Of a stretch of 64,000 bases of DNA, positions 1 to 57,312 are shown piece by piece. Origin of the DNA: an uncultured bacterium. Lineage in GTDB: Bacteria > Chlamydiota > Chlamydiia > Chlamydiales > FEN-1388. Below the pieces are notes generated by a model. The model did not search any database and had not been told where the DNA came from. It saw nothing but the letters and a program-made list of their open reading frames with translations. A program made the position numbers and the translations under genes. The stretch lies in the NCBI GenBank assembly GCA_964409235.1, contig CAYPCN010000002.1, positions 6,036-70,035 on the forward strand. Reading direction: 5' to 3'. Position 1 is the stretch's first letter, and each line of letters starts with the position of its first letter.

Positions 1-3000
1 GATTGCTAGTAGATCTTGCTTTAATCGTTTATATGGACCTTGATCATCAAACGACAAAGGCGAGATCATTAAAAAGTTCTCAATTTCAGCATCACGAACC
101 TCTGTCAGGAACTGACTAGCATCAATCTCATTCTTGCGCGCTTTTTCTTGCGCCTCTCGTATTTTCTGCCGCAAATTCTTTATCTTCTGAGAGATTTCAC
201 CTTGGAGAACATCCTTGACAGCTTGTTTAGATGAAGGAATAAGGGCTACAAGCTTTGTAGACAATTGATCAAAAGTGCCCGCGCTCTCTAAAAATGCCGC
301 CTCTATGCTCTCAAGAGAATTTTGCCCTTCTCTCTTGAATGAGAGCGGGTGGATGATGCCAAAAATTTCACTTTCTGCGATTCTGATCTCTTCAAGAAGT
401 TTCTCCTTGTTTTTACGACGTTTCTCCCCCATATCCTGGGATGGGCTTGCTCCACACTCATCATCTATTTTCTTATGAGCAGCAATGAGGCTCTTCACCC
501 TTTTTTCAAATGCCGCAAAATCCCTGTCAAGCATTGCGTCACTTTTCTTCAACTCTTCCAATCGCTCTTCGGCTTCCTTCAGAACACGATCAAATTTCCC
601 GTCTTCGTCAAAAGCGTTAACAATCTGATCCTGAGAAAGCGGCTTGTGCCGAAGAATATCCTGCCACATTTCGCATGCACCGAAGCGGAGGTCTTCTATT
701 GACTTCTGCAACTTCTCCACAGAAGCTTTGATATTTCCTCGAACTTGGCCTACAAGAGCAAGAGGAGAAGCCTCTCCTGGCTCTTCACGATAAAATGCAC
801 CACTGTTTGCTCTCACCTCCCATATCCCCTCTCGCATCTCCACTGGTATGCGACGACGCATCTCATGCAAGTACGCAAGGGAAAGAAGAAATTGGCGAGC
901 CTGAAGATCTAATGTGCGATGGAACGCCGCTTCTTCTGTTGATTTTGCAGCAGGTAAAATCGACGGAAGGAATAAAAATGAAAGCTCCTCTACAGAAACG
1001 CCATCTCTTTCAATCGATCGAACATAACTCCAAAAATTTTCAAGAAGATCGTTGAGAGGTCGCGGCGATTTGATCAACCGGATCTGCACATGCTCGTCTG
1101 TTGGCTTGGAAACACGGAGCAACGTGAGAAGAAAATCAGGATCTAGATGATCGACAAATCGCATCGGCACATCAACAGCTGGCACCCCTTGGATTCCAAA
1201 AAATTCCGCCATCCCTTTCGGGCTTGAAAGATCTCGGAGGAGCGTATCTCCCACACCACTCAGCTGCGCGCGCTCCTCGCCAGTAAGAAGATACACAGAG
1301 GCATAGACTTTCTGCCGCTGGAACACAGAAAACTCTTCGCTTTTTTCCAAGACAAGATACGCTTCATACATTTTTGTCATTCGCTCTGCTGCAGCAAATC
1401 GCTGCCTCGGCGAACCTACCAGTTCTGAGCGTTGCATTTCTTGCAGCCGGCTGACCTCGAGTAAAAGGCGCAGGTTCATGGCAAGACCAGCAGGGGATTT
1501 CAAGAGGCGAGGGGATAGAGGGAATCCCTCCTGAACTAAAGAAATAATGTGAGAAAGAGCAGCGAGTTGAGCACGATCATCAGAGGGACGATCGCTATGC
1601 AGCGAACGGATCAGTTCTTCTGCCCGTACGTACAGATCACGGGCAACATCAACATTTTTCTCCCCTTCAGCTTGGCACAGGAAGCGATAGGCCATATATA
1701 CTTTTGCAGCAACCGATCCTTTGACAGTCCCATCAGTTTCGATGGTCACAAGCTCTGGTTCTGGAAGGCGCGTTCCCTGTTCTTGCAAAGCTTCTAGAGA
1801 ACCTTCAGCATTCCGAGACTGAGGATATGGCATCATCACAAATTGAAATCCCCCTTCTACTTGAAGAGGGATGACGTACTCGTGCCAGTTCCTCCCGAAA
1901 TTCTGTTCCAATAAAGAACATACCTCTGCCGGAGGAGTTTTCAAACTTCCAATGTCCTGGCCTCGCAGGAAACATTTCCACTGATCGTCACGGCGAGCAA
2001 AGCGAATAGGAGTTCCTTTCACACGAAGCTCTACGGGAGTCTTTTTTTGAGAATCGAGGAGAACGACCACATGTTGGGAAGCAACAGCCTTCAAAGGAGA
2101 TGGTAGATCAAGGGTTTCAGAGCAACTCACAAAGGCACCATCCCATGTTCGAACCGAAACGGGTTGCCTCTTTGTGTCAACATCTATGGGGAGAACCTCT
2201 CCTAGCTTCTCTCCATGACTCTTCATTCCGTGAGGGAAGAGAAACCTCCTGCCATCTTCATCCACCCATATCCCATTGTCCATAATAAGCGCTGCTGCTT
2301 GGTTTGTCACAGCAAGAGAGGGAGGAGGCTCGTAGGTAAAGGTACACTCTTCTTCTGATGCGAGCTGCACGGTCCTCGTAATCTTGACATGCGGAGGCCT
2401 GCCGGAGAGAGTAAATTTTTGGCCTTCATGTTCCCAGGTATAGATGCTCTCCCCACCTTTGCGCTGTACCTGGGCTTTGATTGTGGGTACCTTCAAAGCT
2501 TTTTGAATGTCAGGAAGATCCATCCACTCTCTTGGAATGAGCACAGGTTGTGGAAAGGATCGAGAGCTGCGGGTATCCTCAATCTCCATCGTCGTGAGAT
2601 TGATGCGGAGATGCCCTGTAGGAAGGCGTGCTGAAAAAACAGCCGGAATATCGGAGTTTTTCTCCCAGCGTACGTTCTCGAGAATGGAGCCCGGAGGAGT
2701 TCGGTGCGCAAGCTCCTGGTTGGCAATGTCGGTCAGGAGGGCGTTTCTATCCCCTTCAGCAAGGGCCAAGATCTGTGGAAGAATGGTTTCCTTAACCCAA
2801 CGAAGAATATCAAAAAAACGCTCTGTTCTATTTCCTGGGATCGTTGTATCACAGAGTAGTTGATAGCCACGCATAATGCGGCTGAGTTCTGTTTTCTCGA
2901 GTTTTGTCGTTCCTAGTCGATACGTATCAAGGACCATCGCATACGTATCACGCCGAAATGAGACGTCAGCGATTGCATCAATCGCTGGTTTGCCACGCTC

Positions 3001-6000
3001 TTCTTTGAAAAGGGAGTCCGCCACAGTAACGTCTAATTTTTTCAACATCTCATCGGCTGTGTCTAAGCACTGCTTTACTGATTGAATCTCATGCACCAAG
3101 GGATGCAATGCCATCACTGCATCGATATCATCAGGGTTATACTTATATTCGTTCTGCAAGAACTGGGCCACATACTCACATGCGGATCCGAAAGCTCCAC
3201 CTCGTGACATAGCATAGCGAGGAGAAGCAGATATAACCCCAGAGAAAAGGCCCTGTTCTTGTAATGAAGAATGAACAAAAGCAATGTGAGCCCGCACCTT
3301 GTACAACACTCCTTGTAAAAAAAGCGCAGCCTCAAAGCGTTTTTCTTGAACCGCCTTTGCATACACCCTCGCTATGTCCTCAATGGCCATTTGTACGTTT
3401 TCCGAGCACTCAACAATGGCCTGTTGCAAAAGAAATGGGCCAAACAATGTCTCCTCAATAAACTGTTGCACTCTAGGGTCTTCAAGGTCATATAGATGCC
3501 CCTCGGCCCCAAGAAAGGATAAAGCATTGACAGCCGTTTCTGGAGCATAGGATGTGCGGTCCGACAAGTCCCTTGGGTCATCTGGCGCACGCCGCAGACA
3601 ATACAGCTCTTGCATAACCCCAGAATCGATGCGACGAATGCCCTTTCCTTGTTCTGCCAACATCTCTTCAGTGGCATATTGGCGGTACCGTGAATCAGAA
3701 ACGCGAATTCTTATATCCCTAATAAATATCTCCGACCGCTCTGTAGCAACAACAACAGGAAGAGGGGGAATCCTGGCCCGCATTTTCTGCCGTTCTTCTT
3801 CAGAAGGCCTCTGCAACGGCGTTGTAGGGTGGTATGCAAAGTTAGGGTGTCCAGAGACATGGATCTCAGCTAACTTTTCTCCCTGAGCTCCTGTGATCCA
3901 ATCTGGTCCTGTAGTTGCAAGTTCCAATGATAATTGTTGCTGATTCAACAGGAGCTCTGGGTTAGCAGAAAAATATGGTACCCCAAGAGTGGGCTGTTCT
4001 TCATACAAAGTAAAATCAGGGTCACAACATGATTGATACATCACCCATTCAGATACCATTTGATTATACTTTATATGTGCACGACCGCGCGGTGAAATCT
4101 GTAATGGCGATGCTCTTGAAGAATTGATGGGGGTACGATGCGTCCCACCTTCAACATATTTGGTTGAGAGAGAGCCCTCGTGTTTATAATCTCGAACACA
4201 AAAGCGATACACAGCCGTAAGATCCCGTTCCAGAGTACTATCCCCCGAAATCTGTGTTGTGACATCTTGCGAAAGAGCAATATTAAAAGTGTCAATATCA
4301 ACCGTCACAGTGTCGAGTATCAAGAGATCGATATCGATGTTCTGAGCCATTCCACGAAGTGCAGACTTAGGCGAGAGACTGTTAACAAACGCAGACCATG
4401 AGCTTGAAGAAAATTGTGGATCGTTCTTCCAATCAATAGTGAATGTGCCATCGGACAATGTCGTGACAAAGGGGAAAGAGGAGAGATCTTGGTGTTGCGC
4501 CTTGGCTTCCACAAGAAATGCCTCAAATTTTTTCTTCTCGGCAAGCACATCAGCCCGAACCAAAGCAACACTGATCGCCTGACCCTTTAAGAGTAAAAAG
4601 CGAGCTCTACCAGGCATCTCGGACCGTGCAAGTCTCATCTGCGTTTCCCAGATCAACTGCTGTACCTCATGGATTGACGCTGCAGCAGTGTTCCTATCAT
4701 CAGACCTGAGCTGTACCCATACAGAAAGCTCTCCGAATGCCTCTTCTGTTCCAGGAGGCGGGACCATCTGCAATATTTGCAACGCTTTGTCCTGCACCTC
4801 TTGAAACAGTGCCTTCCGAACGCTGATATCTTTCTCTGCACGAGCTGCCTGCATCAACGTTGTGCACTGTGCAGTCAGTGCAGAAAACGCTCTGACTACT
4901 TCTTGTGGGGTTGTACCATCTCCGACGACCTTCACAGCCCCGCCTTTTGGAAACGCCGAAAGAAGTGGCTCAAAATTGCCTACAAGGCGTTGTACCACCT
5001 CTTTTTGCGGACCCTCTTGTATGCCTTCAGGAACCATCCGCCACTGTTGTCGTTCAAGTTCCTCCACCGTTTCTTGGCTGATTCCATGGCGAAGTTGCAA
5101 CAGAGCATTGATCGCTTCAAACACTTTCCTATGCTTTGCAGACACCACCATTGCCGGATCTTCCATCTCGTGGAACAATGAGACCAGTTTGCCTATGTCT
5201 CTTCCAGACACGCCTGGACATTGAGGGATCAGATGTGGATACAAAATCATCTGCCGAAGAATTGAGCACGCCTTTTCAGGAGCTATGGGAGGACGAACTT
5301 TAACTAACAACCCTGGAAAATCAGGATCCTCTTCCACACACTCTGTAACGGCTGTGTTGACAAAGCCCTGTATCGCGTCTGCATCAGCAAATACATCACC
5401 TCGAGGCTTTTTATCCTCTGGAAGACGTGACAAAAGTGTTTCCGCGCGAGCATGGGCAACTGCAGCATTATGTGCCGCCCTGCTCGCTGGAGAGGTGAGG
5501 CCTTCTAGTTTCTGCTGTTTATCTTTCCACTGCGCAGAAAACTCGCTTGGAACAGATACTATCTCGGCAGTCACTGTTGGCGCAGAACCCTTTTCAGTAG
5601 GAAGTGGAGCCTCTGCAGGTGCGGGGCTGGACGCTACCTTTTTCGAAGGCAATGGTAAAGTAGTCTCCTGTGGACTCACGGCAAAATTGCCAGTAAGCTC
5701 TTGCTCATGAATGCGGATTTTTTCTTTCAATACCGCAACTTTTCTAAAACACTTTTCTTGTATTCGTTGAAATCGCTCCGGATACCTTGTTTGATCAGTC
5801 TCTTTGCCAGTCAGCGCCCACGCAATTTTATCCCCCGCATGGCTCACCATCGCCATCACAGACTCATAGATTTTTAGGGTTTCTTCGTCTGATAGCGCTG
5901 GAGAAATCCGAGCTAATTCTCTTTCCGCCCATTCAACCGTCATCGAAAAGAGGAGCTCTAATTGCTGGTCTTTAGGAAAGTCCTGTTTTGTCTTGCCAAT

Positions 6001-7167
6001 AAGATGCTGAAACCATTTTGACACTCGGCTTGGAGCGGATTCTGGCGCGCTGACGACTTCCGAAACGTTCTGCTTCTGAAGTCCTACGCCGCATCCCTCT
6101 ACAGCAACAAGCACTCCCCCATATCCAACTCCAGCAAATGAAGGTACTTGGTGGGCCGAAGCAGGTTCTGCTTTGTCCTCTTTTTTCTTTTTGCCCTCGC
6201 CCGATATCCCCGCCCCCTTCAATGCGTCCTCCTCAACACGTCGAAAGAGCTCTCTAAATCCCTTGCTTCCTCCTCGAAGGCGAGGCGCCTCTTTGGCTAG
6301 TGTAGGAGGGACAAGAACGTCGAACAATGTCGTGAGGATGGTGCTAATTTGCCCAGCATTAGGACGGGCTGAAAACTTCCATTTCTGAGTGGGGTGTACT
6401 TTCGCCCCAGCCTCGGGCGTATCATTGAAGACCTCTAGATAATATTCATTAGCATCACGGATGAACCGCACCAACAGAGGCTGCAGCACCCCATCGTTAT
6501 TGAGAAATCCGAGAGGGATGGGGCGATCGAGATTATACGTAAAATCACTCGCTATCATCTCTCCCCATTCGTCCGCCAAACCATGCAGTGCTGCAGTGGG
6601 ATTGCGAGAATGCAAGGCACGATCTATGCATGTACCCCAAGTAACAAGCGATTGTGCGCAGCTGACCTTAGAGGAGGTAGAGGATACCCACGACTGGCCA
6701 ACACGAAGGGCTTGTATCAAACTTGAATAATCTTCACGCACCGCTTTTAAAGGGTCTCTGCGCGGCTCGCCAGGAGTCTTCAATGTTTTGGGATAGAACA
6801 ATCTGATAACCGTTTTCCAAAAGGTATGTACTGAAGAAAGAAATCCTCGTTCGAGAACGGTTTCTTTGATAGCACCCCAGCTTTCCGGCGCTGGTGTCCC
6901 TTCCTTTGGTGCTGTTGGTGCTGTTTTGGCCACGTGGAACGAAGTTGTTTTATCAACACGCACGTGAAAGGTATCATCAGAGAGTTGCTTGATCTGCAGC
7001 TTTCGCCGTTTTGTCTCTGGAATCTCTTTTTTGGTAAGGAGCTCTGTGATTTTGGTCACAAGTCCTTGAGGGAGATCTCTTTTGATCTTTTTGCCCTGGC
7101 TGTCTCGTAAGGTGTACTGAAACCCAATTGTCCCTTGCTCAGGTTTGACTTCTGATGATTCACTCAT
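1..7167 (-). CDS. Giant hypothetical protein, first 2389 codons (3' end runs off the window start); candidate secreted effector
   Basis: Own translation. ATG is the complement of 7165-7167 (MSESSEVKPEQGTIGFQYTLRDSQGKKIKRDLPQGLVTKITELLTKKEIPETKRRKLQIKQLSDDTFHV...). I verified 69 codons by hand without a stop. An ORF that long terminating in the window would be in the track, and it is not, so the frame must stay open to position 1 (ends ...KQDLLAI). All listed minus-strand ORFs in 1-7167 are short and in a different frame. No catalytic motif recognised. Confidence 0.8.
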   Translation of the reverse strand, partial: MSESSEVKPEQGTIGFQYTLRDSQGKKIKRDLPQGLVTKITELLTKKEIPETKRRKLQIKQLSDDTFHVRVDKTTSFHVAKTAPTAPKEGTPAPESWGAIKETVLERGFLSSVHTFWKTVIRLFYPKTLKTPGEPRRDPLKAVREDYSSLIQALRVGQSWVSSTSSKVSCAQSLVTWGTCIDRALHSRNPTAALHGLADEWGEMIASDFTYNLDRPIPLGFLNNDGVLQPLLVRFIRDANEYYLEVFNDTPEAGAKVHPTQKWKFSARPNAGQISTILTTLFDVLVPPTLAKEAPRLRGGSKGFRELFRRVEEDALKGAGISGEGKKKKEDKAEPASAHQVPSFAGVGYGGVLVAVEGCGVGLQKQNVSEVVSAPESAPSRVSKWFQHLIGKTKQDFPKDQQLELLFSMTVEWAERELARISPALSDEETLKIYESVMAMVSHAGDKIAWALTGKETDQTRYPERFQRIQEKCFRKVAVLKEKIRIHEQELTGNFAVSPQETTLPLPSKKVASSPAPAEAPLPTEKGSAPTVTAEIVSVPSEFSAQWKDKQQKLEGLTSPASRAAHNAAVAHARAETLLSRLPEDKKPRGDVFADADAIQGFVNTAVTECVEEDPDFPGLLVKVRPPIAPEKACSILRQMILYPHLIPQCPGVSGRDIGKLVSLFHEMEDPAMVVSAKHRKVFEAINALLQLRHGISQETVEELERQQWRMVPEGIQEGPQKEVVQRLVGNFEPLLSAFPKGGAVKVVGDGTTPQEVVRAFSALTAQCTTLMQAARAEKDISVRKALFQEVQDKALQILQMVPPPGTEEAFGELSVWVQLRSDDRNTAAASIHEVQQLIWETQMRLARSEMPGRARFLLLKGQAISVALVRADVLAEKKKFEAFLVEAKAQHQDLSSFPFVTTLSDGTFTIDWKNDPQFSSSSWSAFVNSLSPKSALRGMAQNIDIDLLILDTVTVDIDTFNIALSQDVTTQISGDSTLERDLTAVYRFCVRDYKHEGSLSTKYVEGGTHRTPINSSRASPLQISPRGRAHIKYNQMVSEWVMYQSCCDPDFTLYEEQPTLGVPYFSANPELLLNQQQLSLELATTGPDWITGAQGEKLAEIHVSGHPNFAYHPTTPLQRPSEEERQKMRARIPPLPVVVATERSEIFIRDIRIRVSDSRYRQYATEEMLAEQGKGIRRIDSGVMQELYCLRRAPDDPRDLSDRTSYAPETAVNALSFLGAEGHLYDLEDPRVQQFIEETLFGPFLLQQAIVECSENVQMAIEDIARVYAKAVQEKRFEAALFLQGVLYKVRAHIAFVHSSLQEQGLFSGVISASPRYAMSRGGAFGSACEYVAQFLQNEYKYNPDDIDAVMALHPLVHEIQSVKQCLDTADEMLKKLDVTVADSLFKEERGKPAIDAIADVSFRRDTYAMVLDTYRLGTTKLEKTELSRIMRGYQLLCDTTIPGNRTERFFDILRWVKETILPQILALAEGDRNALLTDIANQELAHRTPPGSILENVRWEKNSDIPAVFSARLPTGHLRINLTTMEIEDTRSSRSFPQPVLIPREWMDLPDIQKALKVPTIKAQVQRKGGESIYTWEHEGQKFTLSGRPPHVKITRTVQLASEEECTFTYEPPPSLAVTNQAAALIMDNGIWVDEDGRRFLFPHGMKSHGEKLGEVLPIDVDTKRQPVSVRTWDGAFVSCSETLDLPSPLKAVASQHVVVLLDSQKKTPVELRVKGTPIRFARRDDQWKCFLRGQDIGSLKTPPAEVCSLLEQNFGRNWHEYVIPLQVEGGFQFVMMPYPQSRNAEGSLEALQEQGTRLPEPELVTIETDGTVKGSVAAKVYMAYRFLCQAEGEKNVDVARDLYVRAEELIRSLHSDRPSDDRAQLAALSHIISLVQEGFPLSPRLLKSPAGLAMNLRLLLEVSRLQEMQRSELVGSPRQRFAAAERMTKMYEAYLVLEKSEEFSVFQRQKVYASVYLLTGEERAQLSGVGDTLLRDLSSPKGMAEFFGIQGVPAVDVPMRFVDHLDPDFLLTLLRVSKPTDEHVQIRLIKSPRPLNDLLENFWSYVRSIERDGVSVEELSFLFLPSILPAAKSTEEAAFHRTLDLQARQFLLSLAYLHEMRRRIPVEMREGIWEVRANSGAFYREEPGEASPLALVGQVRGNIKASVEKLQKSIEDLRFGACEMWQDILRHKPLSQDQIVNAFDEDGKFDRVLKEAEERLEELKKSDAMLDRDFAAFEKRVKSLIAAHKKIDDECGASPSQDMGEKRRKNKEKLLEEIRIAESEIFGIIHPLSFKREGQNSLESIEAAFLESAGTFDQLSTKLVALIPSSKQAVKDVLQGEISQKIKNLRQKIREAQEKARKNEIDASQFLTEVRDAEIENFLMISPLSFDDQGPYKRLKQDLLAI

Positions 7168-7322
7168 AGCGCCAGGCTCCGTATCCATGCACCTAATAAT
7201 CTTTTATACGTCCATACTCTGCTCCATCAAAGGAATCAAGAGTGACAAATCCGTCTGAACACGCCTACATGTTCACAACTCTATCTACGAATCGGGGAGG
7301 AAAGCAGGGAAGTGGAGCAGAT

Positions 7323-7362
7323 GAGTCGCCGTGCCAGCCACTTTTGCGTGAAGGCTAGAGGT
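7323..7362 (-). repeat. Degenerate copy of the dispersed TIR repeat family (left-arm type)
   Basis: GAGTCGCCGTGCCAGCCACTTTTGCGTGAAGGCTAGAGG resembles GAGCCATGTGCGATAAGCCTTTTGAAGGCTAGAGG at 36408. Confidence 0.35.
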
Positions 7363-7389
7363 TTTTCCGTTCTCTAGAATTTTGTACAT

Positions 7390-7398
7390 TGCTATAAT
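7390..7398 (+). promoter_or_regulatory. Possible extended -10 promoter element (TGcTATAAT) for the symporter gene
   Basis: TGCTATAAT lies 157 nt upstream of the ATG at 7555 and sits inside a 7-bp inverted repeat (CATTGCT...AGCAATG). No good -35 element. Confidence 0.3.
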
Positions 7399-7554
7399 GC
7401 TTGTCAGCAATGAGTCTTCCAATGAGAAAAGAGATTTTTTCTTTCTCACATCTGTCCCATCTCCACCATCGACCGTAAGGTCGATATTGTCTGCATTTTA
7501 TTCTCATTTTTTTATTTACATCACAAAAAACGCGAACTCTTGCGTGGAGATGCT

Positions 7555-8909: not shown

Positions 8910-8932
8910 AAAAGGCACATCGCACATGACTC
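8910..8932 (+). repeat. Repeat-family core (right-arm type), solo
   Basis: AAAAGGCACATCGCACATGACTC, compared with AAAAGGCCCATCGCACATGGCTC at 36468. Confidence 0.6.
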
Positions 8933-9096: not shown

Positions 9097-9930
9097 ATGT
9101 CGTACGAACTTCTTGACAGTGGTCATGGGCGAAAGCTCGAGCGCTTCGGAGAATTTGTCCTCAGTCGCCCCTGTTCGCAAGCGCTCTGGCAACCAGCGCT
9201 TCCTCAGGACCAATGGACAGCGGCCGACGCCTCGTTCTCGCGAATAGAGAATGAAGGATGGCGATTCGCCCGTTCTCTCCCTGATTCGTGGCAGATTGAG
9301 ATCGACGGGATGATCATGAAGGTTCATCTCACGGACTTCGGCCATGTAGGGTTTTTCCCTGAACAACGCCCCTTGTGGACGACGATTCGTACCTTGGCGA
9401 GCCAGCGGCCGTCACGCATACTCAATCTTTTCGCCTACTCTGGAGGCAGCACCCTCGCCGCAGCATTAGGCGGCGCCACCGTGTGCCATATCGATGCTTC
9501 CAAGGGCATGGTACAATGGGCCCGAGAAAACGCCGCTCTCAACAACCTCTCATCAGCCCCAATACGATGGATCGTTGAAGATGTGATCAAATTTCTGAAA
9601 CGCGAAGAGAGGCGGGGGTCGCTCTATGACGGCATCATCCTCGACCCACCCTCCTTTGGCCGTGGAAGTAAAGGGGAGGTGTTTACAATCGAGGAAGGGA
9701 TTCTCCCTCTCCTATCGCTCTGCCGGTCATGCCTGACCCCCAACCCGCAGTTCATCCTCTTGTCCTGCCATACCCCCGGCTTCACACCCATTACCCTCCA
9801 CCATCTTCTCGAAGACACCTCGTGCGGCCTCACCGGCACCATAGAAGCAGGAGAAATGGTGCTCTCCAATCCCCACAGCGCTGTTAGGGCCGTGCCTAGC
9901 GGAATATACGCTCTATGGAGGTCGGCATGA
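9097..9930 (+). CDS. Class I SAM-dependent RNA methyltransferase (RlmI/RlmK catalytic-domain-like)
   Basis: SAM-binding motif NLFAYSGGSTLAAALGGA..HIDAS and catalytic-loop motif IILDPPSFGRG. N-terminus MSYELLDSGHGRKLERFG is typical of this family. The track start at 9040 is probably too far upstream. Confidence 0.75.
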   Translation: MSYELLDSGHGRKLERFGEFVLSRPCSQALWQPALPQDQWTAADASFSRIENEGWRFARSLPDSWQIEIDGMIMKVHLTDFGHVGFFPEQRPLWTTIRTLASQRPSRILNLFAYSGGSTLAAALGGATVCHIDASKGMVQWARENAALNNLSSAPIRWIVEDVIKFLKREERRGSLYDGIILDPPSFGRGSKGEVFTIEEGILPLLSLCRSCLTPNPQFILLSCHTPGFTPITLHHLLEDTSCGLTGTIEAGEMVLSNPHSAVRAVPSGIYALWRSA

Positions 9931-34312: not shown

Positions 34313-34447
34313 GAGCCATTTGCAATGCGCCTTTTGGAAGATGGAGTTGAATCTATCCAGAACTTCCTCACCCGTATGTCAGGGGTGAGGTAGCTCGATC
34401 CAAAAATCTCTCACCTCTCCTCTAAAAATCCGCATCGCAAATGGCTC
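34313..34447. repeat. Full-length TIR repeat element (about 135 bp)
   Basis: The left arm GAGCCATTTGCAATGCGCCTTTT and the right arm AAAAATCCGCATCGCAAATGGCTC are inverted. The interior (GAATCTATCCAGAACTTCCTCACCCGTATGTCAGGGG...GATCCAAAAATCTC) matches the reverse complement of 36704-36843. Confidence 0.75.
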
Positions 34448-34604
34448 GGATATTTCCTGCTCACACTGGATGATGAATACCAAACCAGTATAAAGGGCGG
34501 GTAAAGCATACAGACAGAGAACGCTTGGGTACGCCACAAGCCGATTGGCGCATGGCAGGCCCTCATGCTGGATCTCGCCTATTCAGTACGAAGACGGGGC
34601 GTAT

Positions 34605-36245
34605 CTACGCCGTGACCGCCTGTCTCTTCTGCTCAGACCGTACTTCCTGCTCTAGGCGGCCCACATCACACCCATCATAGTCCACAAACTGAAAAAACCG
34701 CTCAAAATGAGGGATGGCGTCGCATACGCTGCGCGCCATTTGCTGCGCCACAATCCGATAGCAGATATGGCCGGCGCTCTGTGATCGCAACTCAGTCAGC
34801 CATTGCAGCGCTCGCAGGTTGAGGGTCAAATACCAGCGAATGTTGTAGGCCATGGGAACGAGATACTGCGCCTCTTCAGGAAGTTCCGTAGAAATGATAT
34901 CGAACGCAGCTTTCGCACCCTCCATAGCAGCATGGTACTCTTTTTCCAGACCGCTTTCTACGAGCTCCTTGGGAGTAAAATAGCCATAATTGCACGTAAG
35001 GAGTTGTCGCTCCTGCGTCAGGACGCGATGGCGTTGCAAATCGCGATAGGCTCCAAAATCCGCAACTACTTCAAAGGTAAAGAACGCGTTTTCCAATGCT
35101 CTCGGAGACTTGTTACGCCGCATTTCACGATGCGCACAGGCAGCATCTAGAATCTTGCCCAGTTCTTCCTCAGGAAGCGCTCGGCAGTACTCTACAAGCG
35201 CAGCCATTCCAACATCGCAATCCTGATACAAGAGCGCAGCAGCGACCTTTACCACCGCCTCTGGATCATGAGCAAGAAGGCGGACGGAAGGCGAGGAGAG
35301 ATTCTTCTCGTCGTGCGGGACATTGGCCGCCAGTGCTTGAAGATCGGCGCGCATGGCCTCTTGGAATTGCGCGTACTGCACATGGGTTTTGTGGTGAGTC
35401 TCCGCCCTTCGAACAAAAGAGGGGATCACTTTCGCTAACTCCTCGTACGATGCCCGGCCGATCTCGCACAGCTCGGAGAGATTCTGGACCTGCAGCTTAT
35501 GCAAGAGCCCCTCATAAAAGCGGCCGTTGCCGAAAAGGCCAATATTCGTCAGCGTCGATGCTGGGAGCAGCCCTCTGACGCAATCCAAGACCTTCGCACG
35601 AATGGCAGCCGTATACGCATTGGTCGACACGTCGGGATCCTTTGGATAGCGTATCGTCATGAAGGTGGTCAGCGGTGGAATGAGCCGTGAATAGGTGTCA
35701 AACAGCATGTTACAGGTGTTGATATACAATGATTTCCATGCTGACGTCATGAGAACCGGTTCGCGATGGAACAGGTACTCGCCGTGCACCTTCTGATCAA
35801 AATAGATGTACCGTGTGGACTTTTCGAGCGGCGAACCACCAAGGCGACACTCTTCAATGGCCTTTGCTGCGATCATCGAGACATTTTCAATAGCTAAATG
35901 AGCGCCACCAAGCTCGCCTATGGAGTCATCGCCATACCCATCTAAAATGCGATCATAAAATTTTTGAGCCTTTTGTATCGCCGAAAGCTGTTCTTCAGGT
36001 CGCCTCTCACAGCCGACGTCTCTGGCATCTTCAAGGCCGGACTCCTCTTGATTGAAAAGGAACTCGCGTAAGAGCAGTGCCCGTAAGCCCAATGTCGATC
36101 TAGAATAGCGAGAGAAAAGCGCGCCTTTAACGACCTCGGGGAGATTGTAGAGAGCAAAGATAGGGCGTTTTGTATTGGTCACAAAATGGCCTAACAGCGC
36201 CTCCTGTTCAGGCGTGAACTCGTCAAACGATTGGGTCATACACAT
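34605..36245 (-). CDS. thyX: FAD-dependent thymidylate synthase ThyX (long, chlamydial-type)
   Basis: ThyX motif region YRDLQRHRVLTQ. The 546-aa length is comparable to Chlamydia ThyX, from memory about 530 aa. Confidence 0.75.
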   Translation of the reverse strand: MCMTQSFDEFTPEQEALLGHFVTNTKRPIFALYNLPEVVKGALFSRYSRSTLGLRALLLREFLFNQEESGLEDARDVGCERRPEEQLSAIQKAQKFYDRILDGYGDDSIGELGGAHLAIENVSMIAAKAIEECRLGGSPLEKSTRYIYFDQKVHGEYLFHREPVLMTSAWKSLYINTCNMLFDTYSRLIPPLTTFMTIRYPKDPDVSTNAYTAAIRAKVLDCVRGLLPASTLTNIGLFGNGRFYEGLLHKLQVQNLSELCEIGRASYEELAKVIPSFVRRAETHHKTHVQYAQFQEAMRADLQALAANVPHDEKNLSSPSVRLLAHDPEAVVKVAAALLYQDCDVGMAALVEYCRALPEEELGKILDAACAHREMRRNKSPRALENAFFTFEVVADFGAYRDLQRHRVLTQERQLLTCNYGYFTPKELVESGLEKEYHAAMEGAKAAFDIISTELPEEAQYLVPMAYNIRWYLTLNLRALQWLTELRSQSAGHICYRIVAQQMARSVCDAIPHFERFFQFVDYDGCDVGRLEQEVRSEQKRQAVTA

Positions 36246-36343
36246 CTTCCCCCGATAGGTACTAGCATTGTGGCGATGAGCGTTGAGAAGAAATTAATAG
36301 CCTTGCCAGCTCGGTGCGGGCAAGGTCCTTCAAGGACCGCAGA

Positions 36344-36354
36344 GCACATGGCTC
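36344..36354 (+). repeat. Truncated repeat core
   Basis: GCACATGGCTC, preceded by the hairpin GGTCCTT-CA-AGGACC (36325-36339). Confidence 0.4.
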
Positions 36355-36407
36355 AGTACCTATTGGTATATCAAGGAGCTGACCAATATCGCAAGAGTTG
36401 GAGACAC

Positions 36408-36490
36408 GAGCCATGTGCGATAAGCCTTTTGAAGGCTAGAGGAGGATCTTTTTGGCCGAATCTCCCTAAAAGGCCCATCGCACATGGCTC
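36408..36490. repeat. Minimal TIR repeat element (83 bp)
   Basis: GAGCCATGTGCGATAAGCCTTTT ... AAAAGGCCCATCGCACATGGCTC gives 23-nt arms with 21 of 23 positions complementary. The interior is GAAGGCTAGAGGAGGATCTTTTTGGCCGAATCTCCCT. Confidence 0.8.
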
Positions 36491-36574
36491 ACACTGTCAG
36501 GGGTTTCCGGAAATCCAGCAGCGAAAAACCGGGCTACACGCCTTATCACACAAACAAAGAAATCTCTCCGTGGA

Positions 36575-36647
36575 TGGAGCGTATCGGACTCGAACCGATC
36601 GCCTCAACAATGCCATTGTTGCGCTCTACCAGATGAGCTAACGCCCC
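36575..36647 (-). tRNA. tRNA-Ala (anticodon GGC)
   Basis: GGGGCGT-TA-GCTC-ATCTGGTA-GAGC-G-CAACA-ATGGCAT-TGTTG-AGGCG-ATCGG-TTCGAGT-CCGAT-ACGCTCC-A folds as a cloverleaf with the G3:U70 alanine identity pair. CCA is not encoded. Confidence 0.93.
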
Positions 36648-36703
36648 AGAGGTAGATTGATGGTAGGGAAGACCTCTCTTTTGTCTCAAGAGATTTTCTC
36701 CTC

Positions 36704-36843
36704 GAGCCATGTGCGATGTGGATTTTTAGAGCAGAAACGGGAGATATTTGGATCGATCTACTGTAAAAACCGACGAAGCCCCGTGTGCCCTGACATATGG
36801 GTGAAGAGGTTCGGGTAGATTCGTCCTACTCTATCCTCCAGCT
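36704..36843 (-). repeat. Repeat element (long form, with an insertion)
   Basis: Starts GAGCCATGTGCGATGTGGATTTTTAGAGCAG. Its reverse complement aligns module by module with 34336-34447. Confidence 0.7.
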
Positions 36844-36865
36844 CGCCTCCTATTGCGCCTCTCTG

Positions 36866-37873
36866 TCAAGGAGGCAACAAACCGACAGGGCGGGCCTGCG
36901 GAAAGCGCTGAAAAACGGCTGCTGCGTCTTTATTGAGGAACAGTAGCTTGAGATTCGGGCCAGCATCCATCGTACAATAGAGCTCTACCCCTTCTCTTCG
37001 AGCCTGCCATACGGCGTTCATAGCGGCCACGGTCTCCTCGCGCCAGTAGCAGATGGGTGGGGAAGCCGTCAACATGGAGGCGTGCATCATCAACGCATTG
37101 CGTTCGACCGTTTGCCCAAAATGCGAGAAATTCCGATCGTTGATGCTCTGCGTAATCGATGCGATATCCTTTGCGACCTGCTCTGGCCAGAGCGTATACA
37201 TCGGCGATGTTTCCACAGACCGACGCATCGCCTCGCGGGAGGAGATCGGCTTTTCGTCCGACGAGAGCATGAGAACAGCGAGGGTAAGCTCAGGCCACCA
37301 GCCCTCATACGGAATTGCATACGAATCACACCCATCTGCCAACACGCCCTTTTGCCATAGGACAAAGCCGGGGTAGAGAGAACGACACGCACTACCACTG
37401 CCAAGGCGGGCAAGGCAGGAAAGCGCTCGGCGGTCGCATCGCCAGCCGAAGAACTGGTTCAACGCCAGCGTGAGAGCAGCAAATCCTGACGCAGAAGATG
37501 CGAGTCCCGCAGCCGTAGGAATCGCATTGGTCGTCGACACAGAGAAGGCAAACGAAGGCGTTGGACGAAAGAGATCGAGGAACTGCACGCACCGCCGGTA
37601 AAAGGAAGAGTCGCGCGACATAGGTTGTGAGTTGGCGACCACCTCATCATGCGATAGAGCCTGGCGCACCGTTGTCGTCGTGTGAAGATCGAGAGCAACA
37701 GAGAAGCTGTCCGTCACGGGCAGGTGTAGCTCTTCGTCGCGTTTCCCCCAGTATTTTGCGAGAGCGATATTCACAGGGGCTGACGCTGTAGAGGCATCGA
37801 CAACAGGAGCCCATGATGGCGGGAGAAGACGGGCGGCCGCTTCTTGTTGGCGCGCTATGGAGGACATACGCAA
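36866..37873 (-). CDS. mvaD: Diphosphomevalonate decarboxylase
   Basis: APVNIALAKYWGKRD, AAGLASSASGFAAL and GSGSACRS are GHMP-type motifs typical of MVD. Confidence 0.88.
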   Translation of the reverse strand: MRMSSIARQQEAAARLLPPSWAPVVDASTASAPVNIALAKYWGKRDEELHLPVTDSFSVALDLHTTTTVRQALSHDEVVANSQPMSRDSSFYRRCVQFLDLFRPTPSFAFSVSTTNAIPTAAGLASSASGFAALTLALNQFFGWRCDRRALSCLARLGSGSACRSLYPGFVLWQKGVLADGCDSYAIPYEGWWPELTLAVLMLSSDEKPISSREAMRRSVETSPMYTLWPEQVAKDIASITQSINDRNFSHFGQTVERNALMMHASMLTASPPICYWREETVAAMNAVWQARREGVELYCTMDAGPNLKLLFLNKDAAAVFQRFPQARPVGLLPP

Positions 37874-38787
37874 ACCTCAACACCGGTTGTTGCTACCGCC
37901 GAAGGAAGCCGTTTGCCAATCCCTGCTTCAGGAAATGCCCCCAAGCCTACAACAGCATCGCCTAATCCAGAGCCCGAGATCTTGGCGCCGTAGATGGTAG
38001 GAGCGCTGCGCAGAGCCCAGCAAAGAGCTGACAGCTCGGGCGTCCCTACGCCAAGGGCTTCCATCAGGCCATGGGCATGATTCATCAGCCTCCCGACGGT
38101 AGTCTCATCGCGAGCCACCAGAGCATCAATGGCGGCAGAGGTGACGTCATTGAGCGCCGAAAAAAGCGCTTGATACACCTTTGGTTGCTGTTGTTCCCAT
38201 CTTCTGACACAACGGATGACCTCCGGCGTTGGCGTTTTTTTTCCCGAATAGAGGAAAACAAGTGGCAGTTCGGACAGGAGAGGGGAGACAGCGATTTCAT
38301 CAGCGCGATAGCTGATCACGCCGCCATAGATGCTTGCAGCAGCATCAGCGCCTGAGCCATACCCCTGCACATTCCGGATCACCGTACAGCAGTCACGAAG
38401 CAGGGCCTGGTTGTCGTACGAGCCTCGTATCCATGTCGTCAACGCTGCCATAAGTGCGACAGTAACCGCCGCCGACGAGGCCAACCCAACGGTGGGGTCA
38501 ATGGCTGAGGAAATAGCAACGTGCACTCCCGATGGCAATCGGCCGTTCAGCAGGCGGAAAACGCCCTCTACAAACCGCAGATTAGTACCGAGACAAGGGT
38601 TGTCGAGCGTTGCCGTGACAGTACCAAAGGCAGAGCAAACGTCGATCATGGTGTCGGAGCGAGGGGTGATGGTCACTGATAGGCGGCAGTCAATGGCCGC
38701 GGCAATGGCATGGCCTCCTCGAAGGACGGCATGCTCCCCGAAGAGCATGGCGCTGCCTGGGGCGCTAGCGACAATTGACTGTGGCAC
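37855..38787 (-). CDS. GHMP-family kinase, probable phosphomevalonate kinase (assignment against mevalonate kinase uncertain)
   Basis: [16 protein letters not shown] and the GHMP ATP motif [16 protein letters not shown] start overlapping the upstream gene by 23 nt. Confidence 0.7.
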
Positions 38788-39817
38788 CGGTCACATCCCC
38801 TTCTAATCGGAAACAAGAATACCCGTACCTCTCGCAGAGCGTCATCGGTGGAACGTCATCGGCGACGAGGACAATGCCTCCCGCCTCTCCTCGAACCGCG
38901 CCGGCACCGCAGATCTTGGCCGCTCCACCGTTCGCTTCGACAGCACGGATGAACGAGGCGACGCGCTGCGGCACAACGCCAATTTTCATGAGGAGATGGT
39001 GGTTGTGTGTAATAGCATCTCTCATGGCTTTGGCATTCTGCGCCTGCAGCGATTGCTGTACGTCGTTTGTCACAGCGCCAAATTCCTGCCAAATCGAACT
39101 GGTGGCGTAGTGGCGATTGACGTTGGCAACGCATTCGCCCGTCGTCGTCTGCGGACGGCCAGTATTGACGACCCACAATGAGGATGAGGGAATCTCGAGC
39201 TTTTCAGGCGTTCTCTCTTTCTGAAAGCGAAGGCATCCACCATGGAGGGACACATAGGAATCGACACCACTGGCTTTTCCATGCTGTAGACGTTCGACTT
39301 CTAAGATCTGGCGCTCGATCCACTCCGTGCCCTTCGTAATGCGGAAGAAATGGAGCAGGGCCTGAACAAAGCTGACCGCTGTGGCAGCCGAAGATCCCAT
39401 GCCGCAGCCAATGGGAATCGTGGAGTGGACTTTGATGTCCATGCCATGCTCCATCTCGATGGTGCAGGCATCGATGAAAGACATGAGCGCAAATTGAAAG
39501 ATATCGGCTGGAGTTTGGACGACACTGCGAATGGACAGCTCGCCATTCATGAATTGGTGGTACGCGTGCAGCAACTGATCGCGCACGGTCTTAAGGGTGG
39601 AAGCTGTGACGCGAAGCGTCTTCCGCACATTGCACAGGGTGAACAAGATTCCCAGCCCATCTTTAGCTGTAATCTCTGTCGTAGCAAATCGGGTGACGGC
39701 AAGAGCGATCGCCGGCTGACCATACACAACCGAATGCTCTCCCGAAATAATGACCTTTGCGGGTGCACGGGCTACAATAGCGCTCACATCCTCTCTCGTT
39801 TGATCCTTCAGAGTCAT
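38765..39817 (-). CDS. mvk: Mevalonate kinase (GHMP family)
   Basis: [35 protein letters not shown] and KICGAGA. The likely ATG at 39817 (MTLKDQ) lies inside a repeat-derived sequence; the track start at 39823 is TTG. Confidence 0.78.
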
Positions 39818-39915
39818 TTGCAACGTGGGTTTTTAGAGGAGAAGGGAAAGATTTTTGGTAGATTCGACCAAAAAGATCCTACGCTAGCCTCCAAAAGGCA
39901 CATCGCAAATGGCTC
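39811..39915. repeat. Repeat element whose left arm overlaps the mvk start codon
   Basis: GAGTCATTTGCAACGTGGGTTTTTAGAGGAGAAGGG...CCAAAAGGCACATCGCAAATGGCTC. The interior contains the hairpin GATTTTTGGTAGATTCGACCAAAAAGATC. Confidence 0.7.
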
Positions 39916-40056
39916 CCTTCAGTATACGTGTTTTAGGGCAATTGCGCCACAGGCAAACAACCGCGAGCAATAGTTCTCGGACATTCAATGGCTCTTCGAG
40001 GAAAGGTGTGGAGAGAAACGGAGTATTTTCGCTAGGATAGCAGTCTCTGTGTGTTC

Positions 40057-40129
40057 GCCTGAATAGCTCATTTGGTAGAGCGGCGCACTCGTAATGCGTA
40101 GGTGGTCGGTTCGATTCCGGCTTCAGGCA
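40057..40129 (+). tRNA. tRNA-Thr (anticodon CGU)
   Basis: GCCTGAA-TA-GCTC-ATTTGGTA-GAGC-G-GCGCA-CTCGTAA-TGCGT-AGGTG-GTCGG-TTCGATT-CCGGC-TTCAGGC-A folds as a cloverleaf. Confidence 0.93.
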
Positions 40130-40204
40130 TTAAAAGTCCCCGCCAGCCAGCAGTTCCTGAACCTCCCGCATCGAGAGGGGAATGCTGGCAATGGCTGTAA
40201 GACG

Positions 40205-40684
40205 TTACGATCGTGGGGTGACGCGCGATCGACCTTGGTGGCTGACCATCAGCCATACCTTCTGCCCGACGCCCATCATTGGATCTGGGCCTTGAACAAC
40301 GGTCTTTGACTCACCATTTTCTAGTGCCACGACGTATTCCATGGCATTTTGAGTTTTCAAAGCCTTCTCAGCATACGCACCGGCGACAGCACCAGCAACC
40401 GCTCCGCCAACAGTGGCCAGCGTATTCCCCTCGCCCTTGCCAATTTTTGAGCCAAGGTAGGCTCCTCCCACTCCACCGCCAATAATGCCCAGAGGGTTTT
40501 CCTCTAAATATTCCTTGTCTTCAACCGTCACTTGACGCGCACTGATGATCACGCCTGGATAGGTGGATGAAGTTTCTCCAACAGCCGAACCAGAATAGAC
40601 ATTCGAAGAGATTTGGCGCGCACAGCCACCAGCAATCAGGGCGGCCACACAGCCAATGCATACAAGTACTTTAGTATGACTCAT
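40205..40684 (-). CDS. Glycine-zipper (SlyB / 17-kDa-antigen-like) outer-membrane lipoprotein
   Basis: Lipobox MSHTKVLVCIGCVAALIAGGC. Glycine zipper GGGVGGAYLGSKIG...VGGAVAGAVAGAY. AAGGAG RBS before the ATG at 40684. Confidence 0.75.
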   Translation of the reverse strand: MSHTKVLVCIGCVAALIAGGCARQISSNVYSGSAVGETSSTYPGVIISARQVTVEDKEYLEENPLGIIGGGVGGAYLGSKIGKGEGNTLATVGGAVAGAVAGAYAEKALKTQNAMEYVVALENGESKTVVQGPDPMMGVGQKVWLMVSHQGRSRVTPRS

Positions 40685-40729
40685 ACAAAAACTCCTTATT
40701 AGATACGCCATATCTCCCATGGCTTTACA

Positions 40730-41593
40730 TTATAATTTTTTTGCCGTGTTATTTTCCATCGTTGCGCGATACCTTTCTTGGCACGATTTGAAAACAGGCA
40801 TCAGCTCAGGGCATGCAGACTCCAACCAAGATTGGAGAGGTTTCAGCCTATTGAGATCGTGGAGCGTTTGCCTCTTCCGATCTGAGAGCTGGCATAGCTT
40901 CCCTGTATCAAGCAAGGTCGCCTTGCCATCGACGAACCCAACATTGCCATTTCGAATGAGCGACCCATCTCTGTCCACCACCCCCTTCTCTCGGCACACG
41001 GTCAGCAACGTAAACAGAGATTCAAGGCGAGCTGCAGCCTCTTTGACGTTGCGTTCTGCCAGCAAGCGCATGAGCGTTTGTTTGAATGGCTGTGCTTTCT
41101 TTTGGAAGATAAAAGGGACATCCTGCAACGCAATTTTTTCGACCTTGCCTCGTTCCGTTAACACCGTCACAGTGGGTACCTTCAATGAGTGCGGCCCACA
41201 GACACAGGCGACAACGCCTGTTTCTCCCGGCAGCACCGTCCGGGCGAGGACAGCCCCCATCATGTATTCTTCGAGTTGTTTTCGCTTTTTCTTTTTGTCG
41301 GATTTCTTAAAAAGCTTGAGCACGTACTTTCCATCAGATGTCTCATAGGCCACGCACTGTTTCCCTTCGCCCAGGAAAAACAGAGGTTGCCCGAAGAGGG
41401 GCCGAAGGGCATCTAGAGAGACAGCAGGCGCTGTTTCTTTGAAAGTAACGTCCTTGAAATGGCACAGGGAATGCGAAGAGAACAGGCGCGCCTGCCTCGA
41501 TCGGAACTTCTGCCATTTGATCACAGCAAAACAACCCAAGACCGCAAGAAAGAGTATGGTCAGAAAGGCCGCCGGCCGACGTACACATGTCAT
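40730..41593 (-). CDS. Membrane-anchored protein-kinase-fold protein (Kdo/WaaP-like or atypical kinase), paralog 1
   Basis: N-terminal TM segment. Gly-loop LGEGKQCVAYE, Lys in YVLKLF, catalytic-loop-like VVDRDGSLIRNGNVG and DFG-like LLDTG. Aligns with the protein at 44101-45054. Confidence 0.55.
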   Translation of the reverse strand: MTCVRRPAAFLTILFLAVLGCFAVIKWQKFRSRQARLFSSHSLCHFKDVTFKETAPAVSLDALRPLFGQPLFFLGEGKQCVAYETSDGKYVLKLFKKSDKKKKRKQLEEYMMGAVLARTVLPGETGVVACVCGPHSLKVPTVTVLTERGKVEKIALQDVPFIFQKKAQPFKQTLMRLLAERNVKEAAARLESLFTLLTVCREKGVVDRDGSLIRNGNVGFVDGKATLLDTGKLCQLSDRKRQTLHDLNRLKPLQSWLESACPELMPVFKSCQERYRATMENNTAKKL

Positions 41594-41613
41594 AGAGAGA
41601 CTCCTCCATAAAT

Positions 41614-41736
41614 GAGCCCTTCTATGCTATCATCGAGACCGGTATCGGTGCAAGATGGAGAGAGTAGGATCTTTTCGGCCGAATCTACCCAAACCCTCCC
41701 ACTTCTCCTCCTCAAACCCTGCATCGCACATGGCTC
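41614..41736. repeat. Repeat element (internal module inverted relative to the copy at 60347)
   Basis: GGAGAGAGTAGGATCTTTTCGGCCGAATCTACCCAAACCCTCCCACTTCTCCTC matches the reverse complement of 60371-60426. It ends in GCATCGCACATGGCTC. Confidence 0.7.
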
Positions 41737-51223: not shown

Positions 51224-51261
51224 GGAAGCCGACGTGCCTTGTGGAGGATAGAATAGGAGCT

Positions 51262-51654
51262 ATGGTCAAAAAGCGAACGCGGCGTCTTTGTGTGACGCTT
51301 ATTGAGATGATCATCGTGATGATTTTGATCGCCACGATCACAGGGGCACTAGCCTACAACTACCAGCGATCGTTGGATCGGGGCAAGCTCTTTGCCACAA
51401 AACAGCGCGTCGAGCGACTCAAGGCCATCCTAACGCTCTATTTTTCTGAGCATCCGGAGCAAGTCGAGGCTAATACTGATTGGATCAACATTATCAATGA
51501 TTCGGGATTGGCCCCGCCAAATCCCGCCGAACTTTTGAAAGATGATTTTGGGGAGTCCTTTCAGATTGCCGTCGCTCACGACGGCGATGGTGGCCTTGAC
51601 ATCAGGGTGTCCTCCAAGGGTGCGGAGCGCGCTCTGCGAACAAAATCGCAATGA
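51262..51654 (+). CDS. Type II secretion major pseudopilin-like protein (GspG-like)
   Basis: Prepilin-type N-terminus KKRTRRLCVTLIEMIIVMILIATITGALA, including the conserved Glu at position +5. Confidence 0.65.
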   Translation: MVKKRTRRLCVTLIEMIIVMILIATITGALAYNYQRSLDRGKLFATKQRVERLKAILTLYFSEHPEQVEANTDWINIINDSGLAPPNPAELLKDDFGESFQIAVAHDGDGGLDIRVSSKGAERALRTKSQ

Positions 51655-57136: not shown

Positions 57137-57193
57137 GAGCCATTTGCGATATCCATATCACAACAGTACAATTTTCAGAGCCATTTGCAATGG
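57137..57193 (-). repeat. Two repeat-family cores in the moxR/secA divergent intergenic region
   Basis: GAGCCATTTGCGAT at 57137-57150 and GAGCCATTTGCAATGG at 57178-57193. Confidence 0.55.
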
Positions 57194-57312
57194 AAGCGCA
57201 GGCGCTGGCTCTCTTCCGTTGCCACGAAACTTTTCAAAGCGTATGATTTTTTCTCTCTCGCCCTCAGTAACGGACGCATTGTCCGCACCGACCTAGATGT
57301 TGAGGTATGCGC

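Follow-up and report, generated by a model that had tools for sequence, protein, structure and literature searches.

What are the short repeats that recur between the genes of an uncultured chlamydia? Chlamydiae live as obligate intracellular bacteria; their genomes are compact and generally considered to contain little mobile DNA, and full-text literature searches retrieved no MITE/REP-type or small non-coding transposable repeat family described for them. We examined a 64,000-nt stretch of the Chlamydiales lineage FEN-1388 (assembly GCA_964409235.1, contig CAYPCN010000002.1, positions 6,036 to 70,035; hereafter, the window), for which an earlier interpretation made from the letters alone (the sequence-only reading) had proposed non-autonomous intergenic elements of the Correia/REP/MITE type, bounded by terminal inverted repeats (TIRs). 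Our results point in the same direction: the repeats are intergenic, occur in both orientations, fold into hairpins, show decayed ends and differ in occupancy among related bacteria, and they probably constitute a lineage-restricted family of non-autonomous elements resembling miniature inverted-repeat transposable elements (MITEs). Elements of this kind are well known, with comparable families in Neisseria, enterobacteria, Rickettsia and Cardinium; the family adds one more example and changes no concept.

A dispersed repeat family confined to non-coding DNA

The repeats share a 15-nt core, CATCGCACATGGCTC, which has 14 matches with up to two mismatches in the window against 0.12 expected, a number reached in none of 100 dinucleotide-preserving shuffles. 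Core matches lie at positions 8918, 19977, 34313, 34433, 36340, 36408, 36476, 36704, 39901, 41722, 57137, 57178 and 60436, in agreement with the earlier list for a repeated core of 14–15 nt. A match at 32471, inside a coding sequence and without extended similarity, was set aside as chance. Long inverted matches among the sites named in that list, together with grouped arms, were a separate output of the repeat finder.

Searches with hidden Markov models (HMMs) of the whole element and of its arms delimited 13 loci in the window, six larger elements (E1 to E6) and seven solo termini or relics (Table 1), of 15 to 145 bp, none of which involves an open reading frame (ORF) or a Pfam domain. Pairwise identity between copies is 75–88% over the aligned parts. 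The loci at 11352 and 51230 are additions to the sequence-only reading, whose degenerate arms at 39811 and 60347 were recovered by the arm HMMs (E ~1e-13) and whose degenerate occurrence at 7323 was recovered neither by nhmmer nor by local alignment. Its site at 36704 is real, but it is the end of a 145-bp element of the long variant that had gone unrecognised.

Coding sequences occupy 92.5% of positions 7540 to 64000, and all 13 loci lie in the non-coding remainder (7.5%), of which the family makes up about 18%. The earlier statement that every copy is intergenic or at a gene end is borne out, with no locus inside a gene and only two touching ORF ends. In the solo A arm at 11352, the TAG at 11374-11376 provides the stop codon for an RluA-like ORF (10678-11376); in E4, an ATG in the left terminus (39815-39817) shares the reading frame of the GHMP-kinase ORF, whose start may therefore lie 10 codons upstream, within the element. 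The equivalent use of the core ATG as a start codon at E1 was ruled out, as the L009 orthologue begins at a downstream ATG. The spacers are of all kinds, separating co-directional (E1, E2, E3), divergent (E4, E5) or convergent genes (E6), and five of the elements fall within 7.4 kb around tRNA-Ala(GGC) and tRNA-Thr(CGT).

Anatomy of the elements and their variants

A full copy is an imperfect palindrome, and the 15-nt core is the terminus of the family. The canonical order is GAGCCATGTGCGATG-YGGRTTTTTAGAGGAGAAGTGGGAGATTTTTGG-(GTAGATTCG)-GCCAAAAAGATCCTACTCTCTCCTCCAAAAGGCR-CATCGCACATGGCTC: from GAGCCATGTGCGATG, at one end, purine-rich sub-terminal arms (TTTTTAGAGGAGAAGTGGGAGATTTTTGG and CCAAAAAGATCCTACTCTCTCCTCCAAAAGGC) lead to its inverted counterpart, CATCGCACATGGCTC, at the other. 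The two arms are distinguishable, with TCTCCTCTAAAAATCCRCATCGCA at the A end and CTCCAAAAGGCRCATCGCA at the B end. Inverted termini of 15–23 nt occur in E1, E2, E4 and E6, and are 87–91% complementary in E1 and E2; the pairs of inverted arms first proposed for these four elements hold, but the pair proposed for 41614-41736 does not, E5 having one good arm and a supposed left arm with little beyond GAGCC in common.

Long variants, of 135–166 bp, carry a nested central hairpin that is lacking from the short variants, of 83–105 bp. The central insertion of E1 and E3, of 44–65 nt, is itself a hairpin, and the same insertion is found in a homologue from a related bacterium (L005, see below). Most of the interior of the A arm is missing from E2, which has a B-type arm at each end, and E3 and E5 have lost one terminus each. 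The modules inside the elements had been described as shuffled and, in one case, inverted between copies; this was not upheld, as all six copies are collinear in a common orientation and differ by insertion or deletion, namely by the central nested hairpin (two copies) and by a deletion (one copy). A T/G polymorphism at core position 8 separates E1, E4, 57137 and 57178 from the remaining copies. It marks two sub-lineages and not compensatory evolution, because arm-to-arm identity is no higher within elements (12.5/15) than between them (12.2/15).

Occupancy of orthologous sites and flanking repeats

We compared the window with about 91 kb of sequence from relatives whose SecA and ThyX are, respectively, 82–88% and 81–82% identical to those of the window. 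The family HMMs found exactly one copy in these sequences, versus the 13 loci in the 64 kb of the window. This copy (L005:141-306; nhmmer E ~5e-7) is a diverged long variant situated in the 5' leader of secA, immediately past CTCAGTA and downstream of a promoter-like motif, TTGCCA-N17-TATGAT (window 57219-57247), that is conserved in the window, L005, L006 and L013, and that has TTGTCA in place of TTGCCA in L002. The site is uninterrupted in the window, L006 and L013, and reads CTCAGTAAC in the window and L006. Past the element, the L005 sequence resumes with CAGAAC, and the resulting CAGTA/CAGAA flanks could represent an imperfect duplication, about 5 bp long. Direct repeats also flank two elements of the window, with CCTTCA (6 bp) at both junctions of E4 and ACAC (4 bp) at both ends of E2.

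Two further sites differ in occupancy. Both flanks of E1, in the spacer downstream of thyX, align with L009 and L010, and the element is present only in the window; E6 is missing after secA in L002, L006 and L012. The E1, E6 and L005 sites show a presence/absence polymorphism at orthologous positions, between related species only. Taken together, these comparisons suggest that the family was already in the common ancestor of L005 and the organism of the window, or was exchanged between them, and that it expanded in the lineage of the window and then decayed. The identity of 75–88% between copies, together with the one-armed and solo remnants, makes the family look old and probably inactive.

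Predicted folding of the elements

E1, E2, E4 and E6 are each predicted to fold into a single long hairpin of -36 to -66 kcal/mol, with z-scores of -4 to -9.2. On the transcribed strand the predicted energies are -66 kcal/mol for E1 (minus strand, z -8.4), -47 kcal/mol for E2 (z -9.2), -43.4 kcal/mol for E6 (secA-sense strand, z -4.4) and -60.4 kcal/mol for the L005 copy, versus -52.9, -43.3, -32 and -39.2 kcal/mol, respectively, on the other strand; the two strands of E4 have z-scores of -4.0 and -7.0. The one-armed E3 gave no significant overall hairpin, and E5, also one-armed, a weak fold with no long single hairpin.

The transcribed strand was thus the better folded one, in free energy and in z-score, in four of four assessable cases (E1, E2, E6 and L005). 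These copies must be transcribed because of their positions, which are between a co-directional gene pair, upstream of thyX, at the 3' end of secA and in the secA leader. The asymmetry gives a weak hint that the RNA strand tolerates G·U-compatible changes, i.e. that the RNA hairpin may matter. Analysis of seven copies with RNAalifold yielded essentially no structural covariation.

Origin of the repeats

The elements are shorter than about 300 bp, non-coding and present in multiple dispersed copies, as are MITEs, and E1, E2, E4 and E6 have the inverted termini, of about 15–30 bp, that characterize them. We propose that a transposase, whose gene would lie elsewhere in the genome or have been lost since, recognised the TIRs of about 15–23 bp and placed copies into intergenic DNA, making duplications of about 4–6 bp. 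Selection would have removed insertions inside genes, and the surviving copies would have decayed to their present identity of 75–88%, to one-armed elements and to solo termini. Where copies lie in operon spacers, at 3' ends or in 5' leaders, they would be co-transcribed and fold into RNA hairpins of -36 to -66 kcal/mol, which probably alter mRNA processing or stability in the way of Correia, ERIC and REP elements.

Several observations weigh against this interpretation. No transposase with matching ends was seen among the 50 window ORFs scanned with Pfam, none of which encodes a transposase of any kind, as the sequence-only reading had stated. The flanking repeats differ in length (6 bp, 4 bp and about 5 bp, the last imperfect), with none at E1 and an ambiguous situation at E6. 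Near-identical copies, which would point to recent movement, are absent; the empty sites come from comparisons between genera or species (SecA 82–88% identical) and not between strains, with exact insertion or excision junctions resolved for L005 only. Also, the strand asymmetry amounts to four cases and is partly compositional, and an effect at the RNA level is deduced from folding alone.

Could the repeats instead be REPIN-like doublets, that is, inverted pairs of repetitive extragenic palindromic (REP) type that a single-copy REP-associated tyrosine transposase (RAYT), an IS200/IS605-like tyrosine/HUH enzyme, moves as single-stranded hairpins without target duplication? Each element is approximately one long hairpin with two inverted arms of about 45 nt and a short loop, solo arms are common, in the long variant one hairpin sits within the loop of another, and the centre of E4, E5 and E6 contains GTAG-N17-CTAC (GGGTAGATTCGGCCAAAAAGATCCTAC). 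GTAG repeats have, moreover, been reported in the PVC superphylum (PMC3733652). However, the GTAG of our elements lies at the centre and not, as in REPs, at the ends, and neither arm taken singly is a palindromic REP. Three copies (E4, E2 and L005) have flanking direct repeats, which are not made by transposition of the RAYT/IS200 type; the Y1_Tnp domain was absent from the 50 scanned ORFs; and the orientation of the elements is unbiased (E3, E4 and E6 on the plus strand, E1 and E5 on the minus strand) against a uniformly negative GC skew. We consider this mode of movement quite unlikely.

Very unlikely, in our opinion, is a host-selected cis element that is not mobile DNA, be it a protein operator formed by the palindromic core of 15 nt, a site for RNase III, an attenuator or a terminator that acts in both directions. 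Many termini do point toward nearby gene starts or tRNA genes, five elements cluster at two tRNA genes and the mevalonate operon, and the hairpins are highly stable, with the transcribed strand giving the more stable ones. Yet the orthologous spacers of relatives contain no element or contain unrelated palindromes, and the contexts are heterogeneous (5', 3', convergent and divergent, in both orientations). The frequent one-armed and solo relics indicate decay and not conservation. Neither a sigma-70-type promoter nor an intrinsic-terminator consensus was found on any element, no run of T that could give a U-tract follows their termini, and promoter- and terminator-like sites in the region are as numerous as in shuffled sequence, so outward promoters and terminators were rejected as functions; the one promoter-like site adjacent to a family member (36689-36660) falls outside it, in the interval from E3 to tRNA-Ala. 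Finally, an assembly or binning artefact, or the chance recurrence of a short motif, might be suspected in what is probably a contig of a metagenome-assembled genome (MAG), but is effectively refuted by the copy excess (14 core matches versus 0.12 in shuffles), by the homologue in an independent sample (L005) and by the divergence of the copies (75–88%), which are set in a unique, syntenic housekeeping context.

A MITE-like family, our preferred explanation, that occupies about a fifth of the non-coding DNA and is found in the leaders and operon spacers of such essential genes as secA, thyX, those of the mevalonate operon and tRNA genes, would be of interest in several ways. It might cause lineages to differ in gene expression, and it could help in strain typing, in dealing with problems of MAG assembly and in finding the responsible transposase.

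Searches for homologues elsewhere

Rfam gave no match on the elements at gathering thresholds or at E <=1, the only credible matches of the search being tRNA-Ala and tRNA-Thr; sub-threshold matches off the elements were Plastid-ycf2, on the antisense strand of tRNA-Thr, and sR30 (38062-38118). The identities attC, dif and CRISPR were rejected on anatomy. With the 23-nt arm as a query, the GTDB genome collection gave one match, on a MAG contig of Thermodesulfobacteriota (L001); the JGI metagenome collection gave one, inside a coding region and judged to be chance; and viral contigs gave none. The first of these (L001 1217-1336) lies in an intergenic spacer and matches the 23 nt of the B arm exactly; the extended similarity is weak (nhmmer E ~6e-4). 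We judge it, short of proof, to be a chance 23-mer, as the adjacent GlgB is 85% identical to proteins of Deltaproteobacteria. A 116-bp segment containing E4 (39805-39920) had no match in the plasmid collection, searched in distant mode.

Features of the family and their genomic context

Table 1. Positions, orientation and surroundings of the repeat loci in the window
Feature	Position	Strand	Description	Site
E1	34313..34447	-	Long variant, 135 bp; both termini; central nested hairpin CCTCACCC...GGGTGAGG	Spacer from thyX stop to start of next gene
E2	36408..36490	.	Short variant, 83 bp; 23-nt B-type arms at both ends, 91% complementary	Between thyX start and tRNA-Ala 3' end
E3	36704..36848	+	Long variant, ~145 bp; A terminus and body intact, B terminus lost; nhmmer E 2.5e-23	Between tRNA-Ala and stop of mevalonate-diphosphate decarboxylase gene
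E4	39811..39915	+	Canonical, 105 bp; A and B termini	Divergent spacer, GHMP-kinase gene / tRNA-Thr
E5	41614..41736	-	A terminus and body (41657-41736) well conserved, 41614-41656 degenerate; nhmmer E 2.6e-25	Divergent spacer
E6	60347..60450	+	Canonical, 104 bp; left terminus degenerate (GGCCAGCTGTGATG); nhmmer E 3.9e-33	Nearly entire 115-bp spacer between convergent secA and 153-aa ORF
Solo B-type terminus	8910..8932	+	AAAAGGCACATCGCACATGACTC; B-arm HMM E 2.9e-4	30 nt past stop of sodium:solute symporter gene
Solo A-type arm	11352..11382	+	GCCATGCGCGATGCGGATTTTAGAGAG; A-arm HMM E 0.0022	
Solo terminus	19977..19991	-	GAGCCATGTGCGACA on plus strand	10 nt past stop of UvrD/PcrA-type helicase gene
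Solo terminus	36340..36354	+	CAGAGCACATGGCTC	Upstream of thyX, faces E2
Relic, B-arm interior	51230..51263	-	CTCCTATTCTATCCTCCACAAGGCACGTCG on minus strand; E 0.011 and 0.027	Overlaps ribosome-binding region of gene starting near 51263
Two solo termini in direct orientation (57137-57151 and 57178-57192)	57137..57192	-	Both of the CAAATGGCTC variant	Between MoxR-like gene start and conserved secA promoter

The window is a segment of a bacterial chromosome with housekeeping genes and a G+C content of about 52%. Its genes include secA, smpB, a uvrD/pcrA-type helicase gene, uvrB, groEL, a class I tRNA synthetase gene, psd and the genes for mevalonate-pathway kinases and decarboxylase, as well as those for a 546-aa ThyX with tandem domains and a 716-aa GreA. 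SecA and ThyX are 61–65% identical to those of named relatives in Chlamydiales, Parachlamydiaceae and Protochlamydia, and 65–68% identical to proteins of MAGs labelled Verrucomicrobia, which places the host in the PVC group and most likely in Chlamydiota.

The first part of the window (1-7540) has a far lower density of ORFs, all of 141 aa or less and mostly on the plus strand, with four ORFs lacking any Pfam match and a G+C content of 47–49% versus about 52–55% elsewhere; this part may represent the remains of a large gene or a further stretch without coding function. Eukaryote- or effector-like genes of the window encode a UCH-type ubiquitin hydrolase, a PARG-like macro-domain protein and an RHS-repeat protein (29483-31111, 61068-62387 and 11426-13861, respectively), of which the PARG-like gene is missing from the syntenic L002 locus. 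These genes are consistent with a host-associated, chlamydia-like lifestyle.

Unrelated palindromes in the window and in relatives

Palindromes unrelated to the family are also present. The window contains one, once, directly 3' of the stop of the phosphatidylserine decarboxylase gene (22960-23118; about 159 bp, with 63-nt arms that are 78% complementary and a 33-nt loop). An inverted repeat around E6 (60325-60353 / 60447-60475, 72%) is at the same level as many chance pairs, and was not interpreted.

L002, whose SecA is 83% identical to that of the window, has many long palindromes unrelated to the window family (9803-9970, 22842-23005, 2417-2525, 2708-2833, 2843-2960, 20035-20200 and 54-136), several of which start with (C)TAG and end with CTA(G). 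One perfect palindrome, with 57-nt arms, lies in the 5' leader of secA, and another inside a called RecC-like gene. Spacers of other relatives contain a perfect 20-bp palindrome, GAGGCTTTTGCAAAAGCCTC, that does not occur in the window (L004 9747-9762, L006 2740-2755 and L007 1738-1753); a similar sequence is found in L008 at ~5760-5880, and upstream of thyX in L008 there is an inverted pair, GAGCCTTTTGCAAAACTAG...CTAGTTTTACAAAAGGCTC.

Past its promoter-like motif, the secA leader looks like an insertion hot spot: L002, L005 and L006/L007 have palindromic insertions there that differ from one another, and the window and L013 have no insertion. One might extend this example, with its different palindromes in L002, L005 and L006, to the whole clade, which would then host an unusually rich, fast-turnover repertoire of unrelated long palindromes that recolonise the same spacers and nest in each other's loops. 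We regard this idea as unlikely. If it were true, the palindromes might be installed by a hairpin-targeting mechanism undescribed in Chlamydiota, e.g. a RAYT-like or other single-strand DNA enzyme, and the RNA hairpins might be kept to tune the expression of essential genes where transcription factors are few.

Comparison with known systems

The likeness of the family to Correia and REP elements is one of architecture only, and neither its sequence nor its diagnostic features make it a member of either group. The architecture is likewise that of ERIC, RUP and other bacterial MITEs and in part that of REPINs, but the family belongs to none of these. Correia/NEMIS elements are non-coding imperfect palindromes of about 100–155 bp with TIRs, mostly intergenic and often abutting gene starts or ends. 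They occur as long and internally deleted short variants, and are co-transcribed into hairpin RNA. The window family shares with them the size, the TIRs, the palindromic form, the intergenic location, often next to gene starts or ends, the long and short variants, the probable co-transcription into hairpin RNA and the lack of coding capacity (for a summary of Correia features, see PMC3733652). Unlike them, it has an unrelated sequence, with the termini GAGCCATGTGCGATG; it is flanked by repeats of 4–6 bp instead of the TA duplication of Correia; no site for integration host factor (IHF) or outward promoter consensus was found on the window elements; and its host belongs to the PVC/Chlamydiota, with a copy count that covers 64 kb.

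REPs are defined as short palindromic units tagged at one end by GTAG or CGTC (PMC3733652). Like REPs and REPINs, the window family consists of intergenic hairpin repeats that occur as inverted doublets and as singlets, is abundant relative to the non-coding DNA, and shows GTAG/CTAC, albeit near the centre of the elements. Its arms, however, are not short self-palindromes tagged with GTAG or CGTC at the end, some copies have direct repeats on their flanks, and no RAYT was found among the 50 scanned ORFs of the window. Intrinsic terminators are, in turn, GC-rich hairpins followed by a U-tract, a description that does not apply to the window elements.

Rickettsia palindromic elements (RPEs) insert in frame inside genes, whereas all window copies are intergenic, with the two that touch ORF ends as the nearest approach to coding sequence. 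No sequence similarity to ERIC/IRU, RUP, RPE or the Cardinium MITE was found in the searches against Rfam and, with the 116-bp E4 segment, the plasmid collection. With all of these the window family nevertheless has in common the imperfect palindromes of about 100–130 bp and their internal insertion and deletion variants. It also resembles the RPEs and the MITE described in the Cardinium endosymbiont (PMC9769881) in being composed of small non-coding elements that have expanded in host-associated bacteria.

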